From IMG/VR virus record IMGVR_UViG_2713896908_000007: a stretch of 64,000 bases of DNA; one strand, written 5' to 3'. This document shows positions 6,759-61,009 of this stretch, one piece after another. The position numbers were made by a program, and so were the translations under genes. The number at the start of each line of letters is the position of its first letter. Position 1 is the stretch's first letter. Below the pieces are notes generated by a model. The model searched no databases, was not told the origin of the DNA, and was given only the letters and a program-made list of their open reading frames with translations. Source of the stretch: a virus. Taxonomy: Duplodnaviria > Heunggongvirae > Uroviricota > Caudoviricetes.

Positions 6759-9700
6759 ATAGCAATAACGTCATGAGCTACACCACGAGTGTTCCCCTTA
6801 CAAGACACAGAACGTCTGGCAAAAAGAGGTTCCACTCTGAAGCCACTGTCTTGGTAAAGCTCCCTGATGTTTGGCGCACCACTATTAGTAATGAGGATCT
6901 TTGCACCTCGGCGATGAGCATCCATTAGCAGAGATACCAGGCGTTTTTGCTCTTCAAACTTAAAGTCATGACCGGAATAGTTTGTAAACCCCTCTGTATT
7001 GGGGAGCGGTTCATACGGAGGATCGCAAAAGATGACATCTCCTTCTCCGGCAGCTTCAATCACCGCTGAAAAATCACCACATACAAACTCAGAACGCCCT
7101 TCAGCACCAAGGAAGGCTTCCATCTCCTGTAATGGGAAATACGGAGTTTTATACTTCCCATAACCAACATTAAACTCACCGGCCTGGTTGTAACGCGTCA
7201 ATCCGTTAAAACAATGTCGGTTCAGGAACAAAAACGCTGCTGCACGATGTAAATCATCATAGGCTTGTTTGTTAAACGCATTCCGTACTGCCAGGTATCC
7301 TTCCTGTGTGTTGTAGTCCTGGAAAAACCGATGCGCCAGAGTGATAAGTGAATGACCCTCACGTTGCAGAGTCCTGTAAAAGTTAATCAGGTCAGCATTC
7401 ACATCATTTAGCAGATTTTCTTGATATCCGGCATTTATGAAGACAGCTCCGCCACCAACGAAAGGCTCGATCAGGCGCTTTCCGTCAGGTAAATGCCTAA
7501 AGATTTGTTCAAGAACACCAAATTTTCCGCCGACCCATTTAAATATGGGACGGTCAAATTCTGCCGTTAGCTTAACTCTCCGTTCTGTTGCTTCATGATT
7601 TTTTGCCTGCTGATATGCAGCCTTAATAATCCGCTCACCAATCCATCGCATTACTGGTATCGCCATGCTATTGCCGATCGCTTTGTAACGCGGTCCGTCA
7701 GCTGCAAGCATCGCGGCCTCTTCTTCGCTTAAATCTGGATAGTGATTGCGAAGGTATGCCAGTTCATCTGAAGTAACTTTTTTACGCTTTTCCGTCGGGA
7801 TCAACGTATGCCCATCAGGAAAACCTTGCAGTCTTTCACATTCGACAGGGGTAAGACGGCGGACAGCTACTGCTGCGTTTCCTACGTCATAGCAAACGGC
7901 TGTTGTATTTTTGGCCATTAAAGATGGTGAAGTATTCTTAGTTGCAGCATGTTGTGTACCGCTCATACGCTCAGGAAAAGCCAATGTAACAAGATGCTCA
8001 TGGCTTTCTTGCTCACGTGCCCGCAATGTACCATGCCCTTCTGACCAAAAACCTGCTCCTGTGCTGCTAAAAACTGCAAGGTCAGTGGCATCTTTAAAGT
8101 CTCTCGCCTTTACTGTCGATGCGGTTTCATCGCCAATATATTCCCCAAATGCCGCCATCCTGAAAGCGTTTACGGCTTTCGTCGATTTCATACCGGGGGT
8201 AATGTCAGCGTGTAGGCATGGATTTAGGCTTTCGCCACTGATTGCAGCGCCATTTGCAATAATGGCGGAAGCGATTTCCTTCTTTTTTCGGCTCGGCGCA
8301 ATATTCCGGCGCACGCCTTCGAACTCAAAAAGTACCGTTGCGGGATCGAGGTCTGTTCGAGCACTTGCGACAACAAACACGCGTCGGCGTCGTTGTGCCA
8401 CTCCGAAGTATTGGGCATCAAGGATTCTCCAGGCCACCTTTCGCTGCGGTCCATAAATACAACCACACTGCGGCCACTTTGGAGCATGGCAACCGGTTTT
8501 GCCATCCCACCGCCAGAACGCGTTACTTTTTCCTGATTCAGGTCGATCACCTGGTTCAAATGGCGCATCTTCTCCAGCCAATCCGGCAAGGAAACATCCG
8601 AAGGCGTTATCTGCCGATGACAAGACTCCTGGGACATTTTCCCAGACGATAACGGCTGGTTTGAGAAATGACTCAGCCCGTTTGTCGTCAATTGCATTTG
8701 CAAGCTCCACATACTTTAAAGTTAGCGCGCCACGCTCATCATCAAGCCCACCACGTAATCCCGCGATACTGAATGCCTGACAGTTATGGACCACCGCACC
8801 ATTGAGAATATAGGAATGATCACCTTCGACTTCTATGTTGTATACAGTATCTAGGCCTACCGATTTAAACTCTTTGACTGTTCGTAAAAGCATTCCATGA
8901 GCCAATCTTGATTTACGTGACAATTTCTGCGGGCAGATTGTTACCTGATAATAATTCCGTTGATTTACCACGCGATCCTCGATCACTTTTTTGGGCTCAA
9001 CTTCAATAAAGCTGACCGAAGAAACATAACCACAAGTCTGTGACACCCCCGCAACGCCCCAAGCAAGCGCAGGACTAACACTATTAATTCTAAATCCCGC
9101 TTTACCACTTGGTGTCCCATCAGTATCAAGATAGCCTTGTAAAAACACATGACGCAATGGATGCGACATCACCCATGCAGGGATACGCTTAGCATGGCTT
9201 AACTCGCCAAAATGTTCATTAAGCCAATTGGCATAACACGTATCATTCAAGGTTACTTTGATGCTCCCTCGGATTTCTCTTGCCACGGAAAATATGTTTT
9301 CTGGTATGCGACAATGAAACTTTCTCAATTTCTGGCAATTTATGCCAAAAACAACCGCCTTCTTAGATTTACCTCTCCATCTCCTAATATATCCATCGCC
9401 AACATAAGCGCCCGCAAGATACATAGCCTGTTCTTCAGACAAGAACCGAGAACAAATATCTGGAGATGCAATATTGAAATTAGTTAGAGCGCACCATTGA
9501 TATCCTGGCATATCACATGCTGCTCGCCATTCCGGTTCAGACAACAACTCTCTCTTAAAATATGTGCCATTTTTCCGGGTGTTTTGGGCTTTCCACCGAA
9601 CAGCCAGGAAGGGATGGTCATTGGTTGTTCTTATACCTAAAGGCTGCCCAACGGCATTAAGTAACCCCGTATTAGCTATTTTTGAACCAACTCTTTTTAC

Positions 9701-45138: not shown

Positions 45139-45717
45139 ATGACTTTCAGAATGAGTGCTGAAGCACAAACCATTCGCGTATTTAATTATCTCGATGGTAC
45201 AAATGAATTTATTGGAGAAAGTGATGCCTATATTCCACCACATACAGGGCTTCCGGCAAACAGCACAGATATTGCTCCTCCTAAGATTCCAGCTGGTTTT
45301 GCCGCTATATTCGACACAACCCGAAACTTATGGAATTTAATAGAGGACCATAGAGGAAAAACTGTTTATCACACTGAAACAGGTGACGCTAAAACTATAT
45401 TTAAATTAGGCGCTTTGCCTGAGGATGTTACGTGCATTCCTCCTGATGATGAGTATCAGAAGTGGAATGGAAATCAATGGGTTACAGACGATGAGGCGAA
45501 GCATCAAGCTCAGATAACCTATGCAAACTCAAAGAAAAATGAGTTGTTAAAGCACGCAAGCGTAGAGATAGCGATCTTACAAGATGCTGTTGATTTATGT
45601 ATTGCAACAGATGAAGAGAAAGTTTTATTAAATGAATGGAAAAAATACAGAGTGCTTGTAAATAGGTTAAATGAAGATGACATCATTCAAATGAAAGTCC
45701 CTGAAATACCAGTTTGA
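45139..45717 (+). CDS. U: tail fibre assembly chaperone
   Basis: Tfa-like protein (FAAIFDTT...W, DEEKVLLNEWKKYRVLVNRL); immediately follows the fibre locus. Confidence 0.7.
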   Translation: MTFRMSAEAQTIRVFNYLDGTNEFIGESDAYIPPHTGLPANSTDIAPPKIPAGFAAIFDTTRNLWNLIEDHRGKTVYHTETGDAKTIFKLGALPEDVTCIPPDDEYQKWNGNQWVTDDEAKHQAQITYANSKKNELLKHASVEIAILQDAVDLCIATDEEKVLLNEWKKYRVLVNRLNEDDIIQMKVPEIPV

Positions 45718-45771
45718 TTTATATATTAATAAGCCACTGTTGACAGGACTGTTTTACAGTGGTTTGTTTTA

Positions 45772-46920
45772 TTATCCAAACCAATTTTCTAGAACATTTT
45801 CAAATTTATGGGTAACTTGCCACCATAAATAGTTCTCTAATACATATTTCTTTCCGTTATTTGCAATTTGTTCTAATTTTTCGGAGTGTAATGTTTCATA
45901 TATATCACTAGCTAAACTTTCTGGCAACATTGGTTCATTTATATGAAATCCTGTATGGTTATTTTTTACAAATTCAACCATTCCACCTCGAGTGCTAACT
46001 AAAACGGGTTTTCCTGCCCCCATAGCTTCTATAGCAACCATGCAGAACGGTTCTTGAAACTGAGATGGGATTACAACTAGATCGGCTATAGGATAGTAAC
46101 GGTACATATCATCTGGTTTTACCCCGCCAACAAGATGACAACGCGAACCAATAGTTCCAGCAAGTTCCCTTACTTGTTTTTGATATGCAGCTTTTTCTCC
46201 TTTATCTTTATTATTGTAGTCACCAACAACTACAAGTTCTATATTGTCACATGATTTTATCAATTTTTTAAACGCTTGTAATAGTAAAACAGTCCCTTTT
46301 TCAGGGGAGATCCTTCCCGCATAAAAGATAACTTTTTTCTCAGAGGGAATGCCTAAATCTTGTTTTGTTAGCGGGGGTAGCCCTTTATCTAGATTGTGTG
46401 GTTCTGTACCATTAGGAACTATACAAATTTCAGCGTCAGGAAGATGTTTTTCATAAAAATCCTTTAAATACTGACTTGGAACAAGCATTTTCACATTGCT
46501 ATCTAGCCCTTTCGGTGTAAAGGCATTATGCATATGCATTATCATTTTTGCGTCAGGAGCTTTCTCTCTAATTTGACGATAAAGTTTCATGCTGTTATGA
46601 ACAATAATAATGCTATCGTTTGTGATATTGAAATCTTTAGCAATGTTTAACACTCGTTGTGAATATGGAATAGGATCTATTCTGCTCCATTTTTGAAATA
46701 TCCGTTTATAAAGACGGCTAAACCCTATTCTATGGATAGAGCATCGCTCATTAACAATATCTTTTTCTGAGAAACCATCCTCTCGAATGCATGCTATACG
46801 ATTTGGTATTCTTGTTCTCTTTGCGACTTGATATATCCAAGTTTCAACAGCTGCTGCGCCACGAGGTGGTATTGAAAATATTGGTGTAACTGTAAATATT
46901 AATTTGTCAATCATGAGCAA
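45772..46920 (-). CDS. GT-B fold glycosyltransferase (GT4-like)
   Basis: 382 aa; C-terminal EPFCMVAIEAMGAGKPVL fits the GT4 E-x7-E region; AT-rich; overlaps the upstream acetyltransferase gene. Confidence 0.7.
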   Translation of the reverse strand: MLMIDKLIFTVTPIFSIPPRGAAAVETWIYQVAKRTRIPNRIACIREDGFSEKDIVNERCSIHRIGFSRLYKRIFQKWSRIDPIPYSQRVLNIAKDFNITNDSIIIVHNSMKLYRQIREKAPDAKMIMHMHNAFTPKGLDSNVKMLVPSQYLKDFYEKHLPDAEICIVPNGTEPHNLDKGLPPLTKQDLGIPSEKKVIFYAGRISPEKGTVLLLQAFKKLIKSCDNIELVVVGDYNNKDKGEKAAYQKQVRELAGTIGSRCHLVGGVKPDDMYRYYPIADLVVIPSQFQEPFCMVAIEAMGAGKPVLVSTRGGMVEFVKNNHTGFHINEPMLPESLASDIYETLHSEKLEQIANNGKKYVLENYLWWQVTHKFENVLENWFG

Positions 46921-47458
46921 CTATCCTCTTATAATCTTTTTCCTTTAAATGTTTTTTTGGGGTTGCGGGAGAGCCCGCATACATTGTATTAGCAGGAACA
47001 TCAGTATTTACAACGCTATTTGCAGCTATAACACTATTGTCTCCTATTTTTACACCTGGTAGCACAGTTGTATTTGCCCCAATCCAAACATTACGGCCTA
47101 TTTTTATTGGAGCGCAAATTGTTTCTTTGGGACGTTTGCTTGGTGTTAGTGGATGCGTGACAGTTGTTAATACAACGTTGGGGCCAATGGCAGAGTTACA
47201 TCCAATATCTATTGTTTTTGCATCGAGAAAAACACAATTTGCGTTAATGAAGACCTTTTTATCAATAATTATATTGCCATTCTCAAAATAAAATGGAGCT
47301 GTTATTGTTGAGTCTTCACTTACTTTAACTCCTGTTTTTTTTAATGTGATTAATTTTTTTCTTTTTGAGATCAAGGTATAATTAAATATATGTCTTGCTT
47401 TCTTTGCTTTCTTTTTTTGAAAAATTATATAGAAATAATATGTTAGCAAATCAAACAT
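46907..47458 (-). CDS. hexapeptide-repeat acetyltransferase
   Basis: Tandem left-handed beta-helix hexapeptides (IGRNVWIGANTTV, IGDNSVIAANSVV); AT-rich. Confidence 0.7.
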   Translation of the reverse strand: MFDLLTYYFYIIFQKKKAKKARHIFNYTLISKRKKLITLKKTGVKVSEDSTITAPFYFENGNIIIDKKVFINANCVFLDAKTIDIGCNSAIGPNVVLTTVTHPLTPSKRPKETICAPIKIGRNVWIGANTTVLPGVKIGDNSVIAANSVVNTDVPANTMYAGSPATPKKHLKEKDYKRIVAHD

Positions 47459-47482
47459 TGTTGTTTTACTTCCATTTAAAAT

Positions 47483-47812
47483 TTAACTATCAAATGTGGC
47501 TCCTATTTCTCGCATTTTGTTAAGTATGATGTTTATTTCATTGCTACCGAGAGAAGTTTGGGCAGCTATGAAAAAAAGTATGTGCAATGACATAGATCTG
47601 TTATTTTCTTTGTTTATATATTTTCTCCACTGGCTATCGCTGCTGACCCCGGCTAGTTCTGCCATTTGATTCCCTGTATACCCAAGCGTTTCTTTGAATT
47701 GACGCAAATCTTGTGATTTGGGGGGGGTGTAGTTGTTTATTAACCTCATATTAAACCCATTATTGGTAAGCTTTCGTTGGTGTAATGGTAGCACCAATGG
47801 GGCTGCTGTCAA
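47483..47812 (-). CDS. small HTH-like protein at the head of the GT/acetyltransferase cassette
   Basis: ORF with a probable HTH (LGYTGNQMAELAGVSSDSQW); start uncertain (track TTG, or internal ATG at 47749). Confidence 0.35.
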   Translation of the reverse strand: MTAAPLVLPLHQRKLTNNGFNMRLINNYTPPKSQDLRQFKETLGYTGNQMAELAGVSSDSQWRKYINKENNRSMSLHILFFIAAQTSLGSNEINIILNKMREIGATFDS

Positions 47813-47889
47813 GCGTCTTTTCTTTATAAATATAGGGAGCCATCAAAATCTGACATTAATTATCTATCGAAATATTTTGAATGACTGGT

Positions 47890-51735: not shown

Positions 51736-52839
51736 TTATTCCCACTCTTGCAGGAAACGCTGACCGTACTGGTCGGCTACCAGCAGTGCAGCATAAACCT
51801 GATCTGGCGTTGCGCCGCCAGGCATGTTGTGGATGGTTTCACCTTCTGCACATGCCGCTTCTGCGACAATCCGCATTTTCGCCGGGATATCTTCTTTAAT
51901 ATCCAGTTGTGCCAGGGTAATTGGCAGGCCGACAGCATGGCACAGCGCAGCTACGGTTTCGATTTCTTCAACTGGTGCGTTTTCCAGAACCAGTTGCGTC
52001 AGCGTACCGAATGCCACTTTCTCACCGTGATAATAGTGATGCGCATCCGGAATGGCCGTCAGGCCATTGTGCACCGCGTGCGCCGCCGCCAGGCCGCCGC
52101 TTTCAAAGCCCACGCCGCTCAAATAGGTGTTAGCTTCAATCACACGTTCCAGCGCCGGAGTCACCACATGCTGTTCAGCGGCAAGCATCGCTTTTTCGCC
52201 TTCTTCCAGCAGGGTGTTGTAGCACAGTTCAGCCAGAGCCAGTGCTGCCTGAGTACATTTACCGCCCGCCATCGTGGTTGCGCCGCTGCGGGAACAGGCA
52301 CGTGCTTCAAACCAGGTTGCCAACGCATCGCCAATACCCGCCGCTAACAGACGTGCAGGTGCGCCAGCAACAATTTTGGTATCCACAATGACGCGTTCCG
52401 GGTTGTTTGGCAGCATCAGATAACGTTCAAACTCACCATCATCGGTGTAGATAACGGAAAGGGCGCTGCAAGGTGCGTCGGTTGAGGCAATGGTTGGGGC
52501 AACTGCAACAGGAACGCCCATAAAGTGTGCCAGTGCTTTGGCTGTATCGAGGGTTTTACCTCCGCCGATTCCCAGAATTGCGCTACACTGAGCATTCTCT
52601 GCAATACCCCGCAGACGATCGATTTCATTTTGCGAACATTCACCGCCGAACGGGGCAATTTCTACCTCTATTCCAGCATCTTTAAAACTTTTCTCAATAT
52701 TAGTTTGAGCAAAACCTAACACAAATTTGTCACCTACCACCAACCAATGTTCTGCCAGCGGTTTCAGGTATTCACCCAGGCGATTAATGACATCTGCGCC
52801 TTGGATGTATTTACCCGGTGATTGAATGATGCGGTCCAT
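51736..52839 (-). CDS. gldA: glycerol dehydrogenase (iron-containing ADH family), host-type metabolic gene
   Basis: 367 aa; first ~190 residues match remembered E. coli GldA almost exactly, C-terminal half more diverged; own AAGGAG RBS. Confidence 0.9.
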
Positions 52840-53142: not shown

Positions 53143-54831
53143 ATGTGTTTGAACGATCATACAGTTATGGCCACCAGCAGCGGCTACATCGGTGTGGCAC
53201 CGTATACCCGCTTGCTATTACATCAGGCATCCGGCATCAAAGATATTATTCACCTGATCAGGCTGCTTTCCCGTACAGATCCCCAGGATGAACAGCTTGT
53301 TCAAGTGCTTGCGCATTTTGTCCGAATGCCTGTTGCCGACGTGAAAAAATGGTGCCGATTATTCGGTATCAGCAATTCGTTACTTCGCGGATTGTTAAAT
53401 CACGCATCCTCCCTTGGGCGCGACGGATTTGATGAGATAGCGCAGGCGATAAAAAACGGAGATATGCCACCAGCTATTGACTGGTTTTCCATTCGCCCAA
53501 CCAGGGTGAAAGCATTCCTTAGTGCGGCGCAATCAGCATCACCATTGGCAGAAATGGTTCAGAGGTTGTCGCTCATATTCACAGATCATACCGCGTTCGG
53601 TGATCTGGCTCTGGACGAGATGAAAGAAGCCTCCATTCAGTGGGCCGCTCAACAAAATGAGGTTAACTCAGACTTCTTGCCAGCATTCAGGAAGGCCGTT
53701 AGTAAAGCGGATGATGCCCGTGGAATTCTGAAGGCATTTAAGGCATTGCAAAGTCGGGTTAATAAACATGTCGGTGATATCGATGGGGTAACGGCGGAAG
53801 GCAGGGATATCCTTAAAGAGCACGGCATAACGCCAGAGTTTATTGATGAGATCAGGACGGATATGCAGCGTGAGGTCGTATCGTCCCTGCAAATTGTAGC
53901 CAGAGCGTTGGCGGATGCTAATCCGAAGAGTGCGGCCATTGTTAACCGGGTTATTGGTGATATTGAAGCATCGGAGGGCATGGGGGCGCTGAAACTCTTC
54001 CTTTCGCGAGCGTTTAATCCTAACGGCAATATTCTCCCTGGCATTATTGGTGAGGCTAAAAGGTATGTCAGTGAAGAAGAACTTGAGCAGCTTGACCAAC
54101 TACTTAAGCGATTCTCATATAACCCGCAGACACGCTGGCAAATGAATCAGCGAAGTATGGGTTCGGTCCACGAGAAAGTGTTATCTGCCATGAACAGTGC
54201 GATCGCAAACTCATCCGTATCTGAAGAAAAAGCTCTTGAGTGGGCCGACTCTTTTATCACGGAAGAAGTGGAAGAAGCCCGCGCTGGACAGAATGGTGGG
54301 ATAGACCTGCGCAAGGAACTTGCTGATATTTATCGCCTGACCGGCGGTAAAATTTCGACCCTATCAAAGATAATTCACCACCAGGGAAGGGCATATGCAA
54401 ATCTTAATGGTATTGTTGCTGTCAATTTGAACGATGAAAATGCAAGCGCACTGTGGCACGAGCTTGGTCATCATCTTGAGTACAGTAACCCTGGTCTGTT
54501 AGAGAAAGCCAGGTCATTCCTGAAGGCCAATGTTGAAGGGGATAAGCCATCTTTCGTTAATATCGGTGGGCGTGGTAAACCTGAATGGTGCTTCAGATCT
54601 CGATTGAGTAATATTTATATGGCGAAGGTATACCCGCCAGCCTCAGTGAGTAACTCCGGGAAAATTCGGCAGAAAGCACCGACTATTTCCAAAACGTCAG
54701 CAACGGAAGTATTCTCTATGGCTCTTCAGTTGTATCATGACAAAGAGGCCGCTGCCGCATCACTGATGAATGGTGACGGATTGCTGGAACTGTTATTAGG
54801 TGTGGCAAAGGAGCTAAATAATGCAGATTAA
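53143..54831 (+). CDS. large protein with C-terminal HExxH zincin-like motif
   Basis: 562 aa; WHELGHHLEYSNPG near the C-terminus; coupled to a small acidic ORF; occupies the region where P1 has ddrB. Confidence 0.45.
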   Translation: MCLNDHTVMATSSGYIGVAPYTRLLLHQASGIKDIIHLIRLLSRTDPQDEQLVQVLAHFVRMPVADVKKWCRLFGISNSLLRGLLNHASSLGRDGFDEIAQAIKNGDMPPAIDWFSIRPTRVKAFLSAAQSASPLAEMVQRLSLIFTDHTAFGDLALDEMKEASIQWAAQQNEVNSDFLPAFRKAVSKADDARGILKAFKALQSRVNKHVGDIDGVTAEGRDILKEHGITPEFIDEIRTDMQREVVSSLQIVARALADANPKSAAIVNRVIGDIEASEGMGALKLFLSRAFNPNGNILPGIIGEAKRYVSEEELEQLDQLLKRFSYNPQTRWQMNQRSMGSVHEKVLSAMNSAIANSSVSEEKALEWADSFITEEVEEARAGQNGGIDLRKELADIYRLTGGKISTLSKIIHHQGRAYANLNGIVAVNLNDENASALWHELGHHLEYSNPGLLEKARSFLKANVEGDKPSFVNIGGRGKPEWCFRSRLSNIYMAKVYPPASVSNSGKIRQKAPTISKTSATEVFSMALQLYHDKEAAAASLMNGDGLLELLLGVAKELNNAD

Positions 54832-55126
54832 AATCGCAGCGCCATTAGGCGGAGATGCAATTATCGAATTTGATGATAATGAAGAAGTTTCCGGGCGTTT
54901 AAGCATTATCTCCGGTGACATTACCGAGGACATGATCGCTGAAGCCATAGCTGGAGCAAATCCCAATAGCTATATGGGATTCGTTAACTCCCTTGATGCT
55001 CCCGCAAGCGATGTTCTCCGAACGCTGCATCTTTACGCTGGCTGGTTTGTTGATTGGCCAGCAGTAGAGGGTGGCGATGAGGACGACGATGATTTCGGTG
55101 ATAATATTAATCAGATTATATTTTAA
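54821..55126 (+). CDS. small highly acidic protein
   Basis: 101 aa, Asp/Glu-rich with EGGDEDDDDFGD; start overlaps the end of the HExxH protein gene. Confidence 0.4.
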   Translation: MQIKIAAPLGGDAIIEFDDNEEVSGRLSIISGDITEDMIAEAIAGANPNSYMGFVNSLDAPASDVLRTLHLYAGWFVDWPAVEGGDEDDDDFGDNINQIIF

Positions 55127-55285
55127 CCCATATGAGATATAATCGTTCTAATGGCATAAAGTTAGATTGTTCTTATATTCGACTTTGTGCCATCATTAGG
55201 ACTAATCATTTAGGGGTTCTTTTAGGTAGAAATTTAGCAATACATGTTTAGTATGGCAATATTTTCTAAAGGAGTTAGGTAAAAA

Positions 55286-56164
55286 GTGAAAAGAATTATT
55301 CCTGATAAAAAATGGTTAAAAGAAGAAAGCAGTAAGCGACAAGTGCCATCAGAATGTCCCTATGCAAATTCATATCGATGTCCTAGATATCACGAAAGTG
55401 TTATTTTGTTCTCACAGATGCAAATGATTGATGGCATGTCATATAATAAAGAGAAGGAGTTGAAACAGTTCTGGGAGAGAACCGACCTCTCTTCTTTATG
55501 TAATGGAGAAACCCCGTTGGTCTCAAAAAATGATAAAGGCGGGATTTTCTCTATAGATAATTTCTGTCCAGAAATATCGTTTAGATATTTAGGTTACTAT
55601 GCAGACTATATGCTGAGATACATTGATGAAGATGCTCACACTATAGGGTATGGCATAGCTAAAAGAGATCAGAAAGAAAATGATTGGAAGTATGATTGGT
55701 CCGAGGTCAATGCTGTTTTCTATGAGGATTGTTACCTCTTTGAGAGAGTTAAACAATTCAATAAAGAACTTCATGATAGTTTCTTTAAAAGACTACATCC
55801 GAATATTGTAATGCAAATAAGTAGAATGGATAAGTGTTTGGACTCAAATGACCCAACCGGTGTTTTGCATGCGGCATCTAATATTCTAGAAACAATGGCT
55901 AAAGAAATATTAGATGATCCAAATGTATTAAATAAATCGTTTGGCTCTTTTTTTGAGAAGTTTAAAAAAGAGTCAAAGTTGCCGTTAGGGTTTATTAATG
56001 CAGTTAAAGATATTTATGACTTACGTAATAAAATACCTACTGCTGGTCATGGGGGGGTGGGGATGCCTGGGTTATCTTTATCTGATGCCATAATGATTGC
56101 TGCATCAACAAAGGCTATTGTAGAGATTGAGTACAGAAACATTGATGTGGCTGCTATTGATTGA
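55286..56164 (+). CDS. AT-rich orphan protein, function unknown
   Basis: 292-aa ORF with AAGGAG RBS after an AT-rich promoter region; Cys-rich N-terminus; no domain recognised. Confidence 0.45.
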   Translation: MKRIIPDKKWLKEESSKRQVPSECPYANSYRCPRYHESVILFSQMQMIDGMSYNKEKELKQFWERTDLSSLCNGETPLVSKNDKGGIFSIDNFCPEISFRYLGYYADYMLRYIDEDAHTIGYGIAKRDQKENDWKYDWSEVNAVFYEDCYLFERVKQFNKELHDSFFKRLHPNIVMQISRMDKCLDSNDPTGVLHAASNILETMAKEILDDPNVLNKSFGSFFEKFKKESKLPLGFINAVKDIYDLRNKIPTAGHGGVGMPGLSLSDAIMIAASTKAIVEIEYRNIDVAAID

Positions 56165-56228
56165 GCTAATATAGCGAGGTTCCTTTTTGTATCGTTCGAA
56201 TTATCCCCGCCTGTCGGCGGGGTATAAC

Positions 56229-57011
56229 TTAATCACTTTCTACCTCTTCCGTTGAGTTTTCCAATGCTGCGCGACACAATTTCCTGGCATTGGTTATAGC
56301 CACACTTTTTACCTCATCCGTCATTGTACAGGTAATGTACTGATCGAGTTCTTCAGCTCGGATGATGCTTTTCCCAATCATAAACTCTATTTGCCAGAGC
56401 AGATCGGCATCCATCGTCAGTATTTCAGCCTGGCCTTCTGGGCCTGCGGGGAAGCAAACATAAGACTGTTTGCCCAGGCCGATAACTCGACAACTTGCTT
56501 CAAGAATTGCACGCTTGAGGTCTGACTTTGTAACTGAAACAGGTTGATTTTCACCTGTGATTACGCCGTTGGCATGGACGTGGAAGGGCATGTAGCTTGA
56601 AATTCGCTCTACTTTCCATACGCCAGCAAGCGATCCTTCATGCAGCACAATGGGGGTAACCGCGAGTTTCATCTCACCATATAACTGCTGGCAGATAGCT
56701 GGATTGCTGAATACATCCAAAGGTTCACACTCAAACAGCGGTGCAATCTGCATGAGGTCCATCATGGTCATACCAGGGGTACGAGCAGTAATGAATCTGC
56801 GCATTCCAGTATCCATTGTGCGCCAGATAGCTACACCATGCTTTTTGCTCACTTCTTCAGTAAAGCCAAGGTGGCACATGATGGTTTTTTCGATAGCCAG
56901 ATCAGAGATAGAAACCTTTTCGCCTGGCACGCCATCATTATTGATGGTCACTTCGACACTCTGGCCATTACGTAGGCGGTATTGAATGGTTTTAGTATTT
57001 TGTGCTGTCAT
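56229..57011 (-). CDS. hypothetical protein downstream of ssb
   Basis: 260-aa ORF on the ssb strand; no domain recognised. Confidence 0.4.
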   Translation of the reverse strand: MTAQNTKTIQYRLRNGQSVEVTINNDGVPGEKVSISDLAIEKTIMCHLGFTEEVSKKHGVAIWRTMDTGMRRFITARTPGMTMMDLMQIAPLFECEPLDVFSNPAICQQLYGEMKLAVTPIVLHEGSLAGVWKVERISSYMPFHVHANGVITGENQPVSVTKSDLKRAILEASCRVIGLGKQSYVCFPAGPEGQAEILTMDADLLWQIEFMIGKSIIRAEELDQYITCTMTDEVKSVAITNARKLCRAALENSTEEVESD

Positions 57012-59734: not shown

Positions 59735-61009
59735 TATATTGCCCTCCAGCTACCTTACCTAATGTCTGTTGGTATATTGGCTTTGATAACATTTTCGTCC
59801 GTGTATTCATTTATATACTCATTAGTTTCAATGTATTATATAGAACATGAAGCGTGCCTATAAATATCGATTCTATCCAACTCCCGAACAAACCGAGCTA
59901 TTAGCCCGGACTTTTGGGTGTGTGCGTTTTGTCTATAACAGCCTCCTTCGCTGGCGTACCGATGCATACTACGCACGCCATGAGAGGGTCGGCTATGCAC
60001 AAGCCAGCGCCAAATTAACGGCACTGAAAAAAGAACCAGAATTCGCTTGGCTGAATGACGTTTCCTGCGTCCCCCTCCAGCAGTCTCTGCGCCACCAACA
60101 AACGGCTTTTGCTAACTTTTTCGCCGGGCGTGCTGCATACCCAGTTTTTAAGAGCAAGCGGCATAAACAGGCCGCAGAACTAACTGCCAGCGCATTTAAA
60201 TACCGTGACGGCAAGCTGTACATGGCAAAGAGCAAAGAGCCGTTAGATGTTCGCTGGAGCCGTCCGTTGCCGTCTGCTCCATCCACTGTCACTATCACCA
60301 GGGATGCTGCCGGACGATATTTTGTATCCTGTCTCTGCGAGTTTGAGCCTGTATCACTGCCGATCACCGTTTCCACGGTCGGCATTGATATTGGTTTAAA
60401 AGATTTGTTCGTCACCGATACCGGTTTCAAAACTGGCAATCCTCGACACAACGCTAAATACGCGAAGCGATTAGCAGTGTTACAGCGCAGATTGAGCAAG
60501 AAACAAAAAGGCTCAAAGAACCGCGCCAAAGCACGTTTAAAGGTTGCCCGCCTCCACGCGAGAATAGTCGATTGTCGGATGGATAACCTGCATAAGTTGT
60601 CCCGCAAACTGATTAACGAAAACCAAGTTGTTTGCGTCGAATCCCTTAAAGTGAAAAACATGATCCGTAACCCGAAGCTGTCTAAAGCAATAGCTGACGC
60701 AGGCTGGAGCGAACTTGTACGCCAACTCCAGTACAAAGGAGAATGGGGTGGACGTAGCATTGTCGCTATCGACCAGTATTTCCCTTCTTCCAAACGTTGC
60801 AGCAGTTGCGGCTTCACCATGCAAAAAATGCCTCTTAATATTCGTAAATGGCACTGCCCGGAATGTGGCGCAGAGCATGATCGTGATATTAACGCGGCCC
60901 GTAATATAAAAGCTGCCGGGCTGGCAGTGTTAGCCCTTGGAGAGTCTGTAATTCCTAAGCCGCTTCATGTGGTTTAGGTCGGACTCTGTGAATTGGGAAT
61001 GTTTGCCGT
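59735..61009 (+). mobile_element. solo TnpB element (IS200/IS605 family, no tnpA), filling the gap between two structural genes
   Basis: Single tnpB ORF plus about 110 bp left and 30 bp right flanks; element ends not defined. Confidence 0.55.
59847..60977 (+). CDS. tnpB: TnpB, RuvC-like RNA-guided nuclease
   Basis: Hallmark N-terminus MKRAYKYRFYPTPEQ; RuvC motifs (GIDIGLKD, ...E..., HDRDINAARNI); zinc finger CSSCG...CPECG. Confidence 0.85.
   Translation: MKRAYKYRFYPTPEQTELLARTFGCVRFVYNSLLRWRTDAYYARHERVGYAQASAKLTALKKEPEFAWLNDVSCVPLQQSLRHQQTAFANFFAGRAAYPVFKSKRHKQAAELTASAFKYRDGKLYMAKSKEPLDVRWSRPLPSAPSTVTITRDAAGRYFVSCLCEFEPVSLPITVSTVGIDIGLKDLFVTDTGFKTGNPRHNAKYAKRLAVLQRRLSKKQKGSKNRAKARLKVARLHARIVDCRMDNLHKLSRKLINENQVVCVESLKVKNMIRNPKLSKAIADAGWSELVRQLQYKGEWGGRSIVAIDQYFPSSKRCSSCGFTMQKMPLNIRKWHCPECGAEHDRDINAARNIKAAGLAVLALGESVIPKPLHVV

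Follow-up and report, generated by a model that had tools for sequence, protein, structure and literature searches.

A low-GC gene in a cargo hotspot of a P1-like phage-plasmid encodes a two-module HEPN-fold protein, a probable abortive-infection-type defence

What is an AT-rich gene with no annotated function doing among the conserved genes of a phage-plasmid? The question is raised by the open reading frame (ORF) at positions 55286-56164 (+) of IMG/VR record IMGVR_UViG_2713896908_000007, a 64,000-nucleotide stretch of DNA that we analysed at its full length (hereafter, the window). The window, a P1-like phage-plasmid, is almost identical to pEA16-1_1 of Escherichia albertii. An initial annotation, made from the sequence, had described the ORF as an orphan without assignable domain but with a promoter of its own and, from its stand-alone position in a phage-plasmid hotspot, had suggested a role in abortive infection or exclusion. 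We find that the gene occupies a variable cargo site of P1-like elements, that its product joins an uncatalogued domain with four invariant cysteines to a HEPN fold, and that it is probably a one-protein defence of the abortive-infection type, combining a sensor and a HEPN ribonuclease (RNase) and carried as accessory cargo. The functional suggestion has gained computational support from a toxin-type HEPN fold with an R...H motif close to Abi_C and an N-terminal domain fused elsewhere to TIR and membrane effectors, whereas the orphan status and the missing domain had to be given up and the promoter found no support.

A foreign cassette between hxr and isaA

The ORF is intact (879 bp, 292 amino acids (aa), GTG start). 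Its limits were confirmed by RefSeq, which calls the identical 879-bp coding sequence in matching plasmids (WP_029791854.1, "hypothetical protein"), and by the protein N-terminus, which aligns residue for residue with that of its homologues (MxRI[IV]PDKxW). The accession WP_029791854 was not found in a search of the literature. As initially annotated, the G+C content (GC) of the gene is far below that of its surroundings (0.354, versus 0.468 for the window and 0.45-0.52 for the neighbouring genes; 0.31 versus 0.39-0.55 at third codon positions), and only 3.9% of the 879-bp windows along the 64 kb are as low; the 159 bp located 5' of it (55127-55285) are also AT-rich (GC 0.308). Homology to P1 and P1-like relatives stops at 55126/7, with the hxr stop codon, and restarts at 56222/56229, with the isaA stop codon, so that a foreign segment of 1.09 kb (55127-56221, GC 0.355 versus 0.468) exactly fills the gap between these two convergent genes. 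The features of the locus are the following:

54821-55126, plus strand: hxr, left flank of the hotspot and last gene of the darA-ddrA-ddrB-hxr block (phrog_2292, P1 annotation)
55127-56221, no strand: foreign low-GC cassette of 1.09 kb in the hxr-isaA hotspot (homology breaks, GC)
55127-55285, plus strand: AT-rich 5' non-coding region with weak promoter-like sites and AAGGAG (GC 0.308, promoter scan)
55286-56164, plus strand: coding sequence of the 292-aa two-module protein WP_029791854.1 (ORF call, RefSeq, AlphaFold model)
55286-55765, plus strand: N-module (aa 1-160), uncatalogued alpha/beta domain, putative sensor or regulator (alignment, predicted structure)
55787-56161, plus strand: C-module (aa ~168-292), HEPN fold, AbiJ/Abi_C-like, putative RNase effector (predicted structure, family alignment)
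56024-56050, plus strand: codons of the motif R247-N-K-I-P-T-A-G-H255, of HEPN R-Phi-X-H type, R-x7-H (conservation)
56205-56222, no strand: GC-rich hairpin CCCCGCC-TGTC-GGCGGGG, common to the convergent HEPN gene and isaA (folding)
56229-57011, minus strand: isaA, right flank of the hotspot (phrog_2326, P1 annotation)

Relatives differ in what they carry at this site. The hxr-isaA gap is empty in some plasmids except for a terminator-like hairpin, of which the hairpin at 56205-56222 is a variant (it folds on both strands, z -2.1 and -3.3, with no T-run after it on either strand). In P1 the gap holds isaB and the insertion sequence IS1, in CP101300 a 95-aa gene, which also occurs in Ro157c2YLVW together with a DUF2829 gene beyond isaA, and elsewhere a gene of ~360 aa (L016 641-1735; L012 1862-2956; L014 1885-2955). 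Since the site is empty or differently filled among relatives, hxr-isaA is a genuine cargo hotspot of P1-like elements. The ~360-aa gene seems to be the commonest alternative cargo; it overlaps isaA by 8 bp and is labelled "terminase large subunit" in one record, probably wrongly. A P1-like relative with the same HEPN gene (L030) carries a Tad2-like (anti-Thoeris) gene between isaA and ssb (7727-8428), where isaA alone separates it, an anti-defence gene, from the putative defence gene.

The cassette shows no terminal direct or inverted repeats, its ends share no 8-mer or longer word, and it encodes no transposase; we rejected a transposon or insertion-sequence origin given the lack of terminal repeats. 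An antitoxin RNA or peptide inside the cassette was likewise discarded, as we found no tandem repeats, no credible Rfam match (either in the cassette or, specifically, in the leader 55127-55285) and no plausible small gene: the only small ORF, of 39 aa with an ATG start (55132-55251, +), lies in the AT-rich leader without an upstream Shine-Dalgarno sequence and is probably non-coding. The HEPN gene itself is preceded by a Shine-Dalgarno sequence, AAGGAG (55269-55274), at a rather long spacing of 11 nt from the GTG, and by a second AGG 6 nt 5' of it. As for the promoter, the highest-scoring sigma-70-like sites (55151-55179 and 55115-55143) agree with the consensus at 9 of 12 positions, a score equalled by 24% of composition-matched shuffles and hence no better than chance; the promoter attributed to the gene was not borne out.

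The gene is rare among P1-like elements. It occurs in 4 of the 488 P1-like plasmids of PLSDB and in 5 of 5,426 complete E. coli genomes, each time on a plasmid of ~95-102 kb, and was not found in any deposited phage genome. In all nine plasmid records found it is intact, with 99.6-100% DNA identity. The exact 292-aa protein is indexed in 484 blocks of an assembly collection and sits at the hxr-isaA site in all eight places examined.

A HEPN-fold module joined to a four-cysteine domain

An exhaustive profile search with the protein family retrieved 576 relatives, including single-module proteins that cover only profile positions ~165-286 or only positions 1-160. With dozens of homologues along its full length and hundreds of relatives that have one module only, the protein is no orphan. 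An AlphaFold model built on a 110-sequence alignment of both module families reached a mean pLDDT (predicted local distance difference test) of 92.1 and a pTM (predicted template modelling score) of 0.76; an earlier model from 25 sequences had a poor N-domain (pLDDT 62.6). The C-terminal half is predicted to form a four-helix up-and-down bundle with HEPN topology, an assignment that came from the structure-based search. R247 and H255 are placed between helix 234-249 and helix 265-291 of this model. Both are invariant in 38 divergent C-modules and 94-97% conserved in 110 sequences; together with G256, E202 and K206 they are invariant over 38-87 divergent relatives. Helix 2 of the C-module family contains an invariant ETxAK motif, and the residue after the motif arginine is polar, mostly N. 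The canonical HEPN motif is Rx4-6H (PMC13043305); an R-Phi-X(2-6)-H spread has been reported for Abi_C proteins (PMC13590631), and the R247...H255 spacer falls inside it.

The only recurrent Pfam match in the family was Abi_C (PF14355), found in 13 of 25 members, always colinear (profile positions ~26-79) and over the motif region. Scores were 13.9 bits for the whole protein and 16.0 bits for the C-module alone, and a "bridge" check on the closest relatives gave 14-23.7 bits, just under the 24-bit cutoff; among the 38 divergent C-modules, only three matched at E<=1. Precomputed PF14355 labels, from a newer version of the model, were present on four relatives (P0004, P0224, P0378 and P0383), and fragments 67% identical to the C-module are named "abortive infection family protein" by NCBI. 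PADLOC-DB v2 contained no family matching the 292-aa protein at E<=1, and searches of PDB sequences with the family or C-module profiles returned chance matches only. The top structural matches include HEPN domains that are not RNases (sacsin 3o10, ANT(4') 4ebj and MtlR 3brj). The HEPN half very probably shares ancestry with AbiJ/Abi_C. C-modules also occur with unrelated N-termini (P0028 and P0029) and joined to WD40 propellers, pentapeptide repeats or a STAND-like ATPase. Annotated forms of 150 aa containing only the HEPN half are very common in E. coli, Salmonella and Vibrio (P0318, on 613 contigs, P0320, P0299 and P0289); they start at an internal methionine corresponding to residue 139 of 288-aa relatives and could be N-terminally disrupted pseudogenes, proteins with mis-called starts or true HEPN-only forms.

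The N-module is predicted to be an alpha/beta domain with four strands. Five cysteines lie in the first 149 residues (C24, C32, C72, C94 and C149), for which "Cys-rich", as initially annotated, is an overstatement; nevertheless, four of them (C24, C32, C94 and C149) are invariant across the wider domain family, which indicates that they matter. P95 and E96 are also invariant, and E74 nearly so. We detected 643 relatives of this module, with no Pfam label over the region among the matches listed; the region lies outside all PADLOC models, and the search of solved structures gave no convincing relative. AbiJ_NTD models of Pfam matched neither the 292-aa protein (E<=1) nor 28 N-modules (E<=0.01), and the label was absent from all 120 N-module relatives listed; this comparison involved the Pfam NTD4 model, the literature cites NTD3-NTD5, and NTD1 and NTD2 perhaps have no model. 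The NTD1, NTD2 and NTD5 domains of AbiJ are mostly alpha-helical (PMC3710099), in contrast with the alpha/beta N-module. In the full-length family, mean pairwise identity is 0.59 for the N-module versus 0.68 for the HEPN half, and it is lower in 96% of the pairs, making the N-module the faster-diverging half.

What follows the N-module varies from protein to protein. In a biased sample of 224 N-module proteins, its C-terminal continuation was a HEPN module in 93, an amphipathic tail in 44, a single transmembrane helix in 39, nothing in 30 and other domains in 18, including TIR_2 and a CAP12/Pycsar-type TIR. The latter matches PADLOC candidate PDC-S35 in its TIR half (E 6e-67), and only the TIR halves of the fusions match PADLOC. 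The N-domain is, therefore, exchanged between several toxic effectors. Short N-module proteins of ~170-210 aa have either a single hydrophobic C-terminal helix, e.g., WYKKPWGIVILGVIVTVIGGFILAWII (P0338, P0335 and P0352), or a conserved amphipathic motif, KPGFMGISxN..LLTRLxKWWLSK (P0333, P0334 and P0116). One short N-module gene (L036 6001-6594) has neighbours of mobile-element type, namely genes for Rad52, a PD-(D/E)xK nuclease and DUF932.

Full-length homologues (286-296 aa, 44-73% identity over their whole length, all annotated as "hypothetical") occur in Pectobacterium, Serratia, Hafnia, Salmonella, E. coli, Vreelandella, Shewanella and several Vibrio species. Their GC is 0.33-0.38 in every host, whatever the GC of the flanks (0.40-0.59), and their sites are mostly islands, prophages and integron-like arrays. 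These include an island that is bounded by an integrase and encodes Hcp and a UvrD-family helicase, an accessory (moron) slot of a prophage adjoining tail-fibre assembly genes, resolvase/integrase islands, one of them with an Mrr-type endonuclease, a site adjoining a Gabija-like pair (OLD-TOPRIM ATPase and helicase), and a lone insertion with transketolase on one side and alcohol dehydrogenase on the other. The V. cholerae homologue (P0021; L023 1-5861, L024 and L025) stands at the end of a small same-strand gene array that, with its acetyltransferases, glyoxalases and HNH_5 protein, looks like the integron-like chromosomal superintegron. No neighbouring gene was conserved across the nine homologue contexts examined; as the cassette also contains no repeats, RNA or small gene, the gene behaves as a one-gene unit, and its description as stand-alone holds for the islands, moron slots and arrays alike. 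A 232-aa DUF4145 protein, which contains another HEPN-family domain (PMC3710099), is encoded directly 5' of the homologue in a Salmonella prophage and a Serratia island (L005 7181-7879; L009 7176-7874; L010 441-1139). As neither the P1 cassette nor seven other contexts contain it, we rejected it as a conserved partner and do not consider it part of the system; its gene may be a distinct defence that travels with the homologue, or else encode a facultative partner.

Probable function and competing explanations

One N-domain with interchangeable toxic C-termini and no partner gene, as in AbiJ-type proteins, makes abortive-infection-type defence the most likely function. Anantharaman et al. (2013, PMC3710099) proposed a double role for the variable N-domains of HEPN proteins of the AbiJ family, as sensors of a viral component and as antitoxins holding the HEPN toxin back; by analogy, the sensor and swappable toxin of the present family follow AbiJ-type logic. 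Expressed in the lysogen, the four-cysteine domain would hold the C-terminal HEPN domain inactive at rest and double as the sensor. When a competing phage infects, it would sense a phage protein, nucleic acid or an infection-induced change, upon which the HEPN domains of two protomers could form a composite R...H active site. The activated enzyme would cut cellular and/or phage RNA (tRNA, rRNA or mRNA), translation would stop, and the infecting phage would be unable to multiply.

A close parallel is AbiJ/Abi_C itself (PF14355; Abi-859/AbiJ of L. lactis; PMC3710099), also a single polypeptide with a variable N-domain and a C-terminal HEPN domain having the R-polar-X-H pattern. AbiJ N-domains are likewise fused to TIR and other toxic domains, as the N-module is to HEPN, TIR_2, CAP12/Pycsar-type TIR, a transmembrane helix or an amphipathic tail, and the present gene is solo, with homologues on mobile elements. 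The protein differs from AbiJ in its N-domain, which matches no AbiJ_NTD model of Pfam and has four invariant cysteines, in a seven-residue R-to-H spacer, in its Abi_C score below cutoff, in escaping detection by PADLOC and in the invariant ETxAK of helix 2, which is not among the AbiJ features described in the cited literature. Judged from its sequence, it is AbiJ-like in architecture, yet sub-threshold for Abi_C, PADLOC-negative and endowed with an uncatalogued N-domain.

SadR, an Abi_C RNase of Staphylococcus aureus, needs R, N and H for RNA degradation and for phage and plasmid defence (PMC13590631). It shares with the present protein an Abi_C-type HEPN C-terminus with RN...H, and SadR-type proteins are also missed by PADLOC; however, sequence similarity was not detectable beyond the motif region, the N-terminal parts and host phyla differ, its motif (RNEYGDAH) has five residues from N to H versus six here, and SadR is chromosomal whereas the present gene is phage-borne. 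HepS, from the Salmonella prophage Gifsy-1 (PDB 9oik), is a proven solo-HEPN abortive-infection protein, inactive at rest, activated by a phage tail-tip protein to cut tRNA anticodon loops and not triggered by its own prophage (PMC13043305). We found no sequence relationship with HepS, which has 218 aa, a canonical Rx4H (R100-H105) and no separate four-cysteine N-domain. Taranis (Abi_C) and Esos (HEPN-like only) are defences encoded in V. cholerae integron cassettes; they stop growth or kill the cell and go undetected by DefenseFinder (bioRxiv 10.1101/2024.07.02.601686). Compared by description only, they are similarly small single-gene HEPN defences, and the V. cholerae homologue P0021 lies likewise in an integron-like array; the N-terminus of Taranis is AbiJ_NTD5-like, a match that the N-module does not have. 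Finally, HEPN-MNT and type III (AbiV-like) toxin-antitoxin systems differ in that neither an MNT or antitoxin gene nor repeat RNA accompanies the gene, here or in the homologue contexts.

Several observations weigh against a HEPN-RNase defence of this kind. HEPN domains without catalytic activity exist. The spacing between R247 and H255 (x7) is one residue beyond the canonical motif, the curated Abi_C cutoff (24 bits) was never reached (13.9-23.7 bits), and profile searches of the whole protein with PADLOC, PHROGs and NCBIfam gave nothing or noise. The gene also lies downstream of the dar block, which in P1 is expressed late, and we found neither a terminator between hxr and the gene nor a convincing promoter of its own. 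In addition, the sensor role of the N-module is putative, the argument for it being only architectural. The C-module might instead be a ligand- or protein-binding bundle, like those of sacsin, the C-terminal domains of kanamycin nucleotidyltransferase type and MtlR, and the protein a regulator or adaptor in which any enzymatic role belongs to the Cys-rich N-module. The non-RNase HEPN domains among the top structural matches and the motif spacing agree with such a role, and the invariant E96, the near-invariant E74 and the four invariant cysteines could form an active or metal site. We nonetheless find a non-catalytic C-module unlikely: R247 and H255 are invariant across a divergent set of C-modules, the polar residue following the arginine reproduces the R-Phi-X-H pattern that is catalytic in SadR, with a spacer within the reported range (PMC13590631), and the part exchanged for TIR and transmembrane effectors is the C-module, not the N-module.

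The protein might serve the phage itself, for instance by processing RNA or shutting off the host in the lytic cycle, or as an anti-defence factor or injected protein expressed together with the Dar antirestriction proteins. Such a role would agree with the location of the gene directly 3' of darA-ddrA-ddrB-hxr on the same strand, with a terminator-like hairpin only after it, and with the Tad2 anti-defence gene in the adjacent isaA-ssb interval of one relative (L030); anti-defence genes are, moreover, frequent in P1/D6 elements (bioRxiv 10.1101/2025.09.12.675607). Nevertheless, the great majority of the family lies outside P1, with no dar genes, in islands, integron-like arrays and the lone housekeeping-flanked insertion, the gene is dispensable for P1 given its rarity in both the plasmid and the E. 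coli sets, and fusions of the N-module to TIR and membrane effectors suit immune proteins rather than anti-defence factors, all of which makes this role quite unlikely. We consider very unlikely that the protein is a selfish addiction or stabilisation toxin, whose cis-autoinhibited HEPN domain would kill or arrest cells that lose or damage the plasmid prophage instead of responding to foreign phages, since the cassette encodes no antitoxin, tandem-repeat RNA or small ORF with a ribosome-binding site, the nine homologue contexts, many of them chromosomal, have no conserved neighbour, and a single stable polypeptide has no obvious way to sense plasmid loss. A decaying or silent passenger without current function would fit an AT-rich foreign gene, possibly silenced by H-NS as we infer, that is rare among P1-like elements and has no demonstrable promoter. 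Such decay is hard to reconcile, and in our opinion highly improbable, with an ORF kept intact and nearly invariant in all nine plasmid records, an exact protein recurring in 484 collection blocks and a family conserved at whole length across many gammaproteobacterial genera, motif residues included.

If abortive-infection-type defence is indeed its function, the gene enlarges the defence repertoire of P1-like phage-plasmids, elements widespread in both Escherichia and Salmonella, and hxr-isaA becomes a hotspot worth mining. The defence cargo of these elements would also be under-counted, as the gene is reported neither by current detectors nor by a large survey: the latter, which lists the defence systems of >1,500 P1/D6 elements, does not mention AbiJ or HEPN (bioRxiv 10.1101/2025.09.12.675607). 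The P1 gene itself is unsurprising to specialists; the four-cysteine domain and its effector fusions are more interesting. With 643 relatives and at least five effector types, this uncatalogued domain would be a candidate infection-sensing module, one trigger domain read out by different toxins. A bolder extension, which we put forward only tentatively, is that the N-module is an undescribed four-cysteine (metal- or Fe-S-binding) sensor of a broad one-protein immune family whose killing modules are interchangeable (a HEPN RNase, either of two TIR types, a membrane helix or an amphipathic peptide), the P1 copy being a superinfection-exclusion device that P1 evolved not to trigger. Cloning and challenge with phage panels are straightforward, as this is a single 879-bp gene from E. 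coli-compatible elements.

Other inserts in the window

The dar block contains an insertion of its own. A complete gldA (glycerol/L-1,2-propanediol dehydrogenase, 367 aa; 51736-52839, -) lies between ddrA and a truncated ddrB (53143-54831, +; 562 aa versus 995 aa in relatives). Since this gldA shares only ~89% identity with the chromosomal gene of E. coli and 91.6% with a copy on a plasmid, we infer its capture from a different enterobacterium. E. albertii pEA16-1_1 has the same arrangement; in relatives, the ddrA-ddrB gap is empty or contains an IS605-type TnpB. A gene for an IS200/IS605-family TnpB (376 aa; RNA-guided endonuclease family) is also present in the window at 59847-60977 (+), between pro and the portal gene, as well as in pEA16-1_1.

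A second foreign low-GC insert (~45300-47880) is located between a tail-fibre assembly gene and lydA. It was absent from all deposited phage genomes and present in 14 plasmids, with its best matches in P1-like plasmids of E. albertii. Two of its ORFs (45772-46920, -, and 46907-47458, -) encode a GT4 glycosyltransferase, annotated as a lipopolysaccharide N-acetylglucosaminyltransferase, and a hexapeptide-repeat O-acetyltransferase, and the insert looks like a cassette for the modification of surface polysaccharide (receptor). A third low-GC stretch (~30316-32366) was rejected as a new insert: it is the native sim (superimmunity) region of P1 (simB, simC, pmgC and icd), 98% identical to that of P1.

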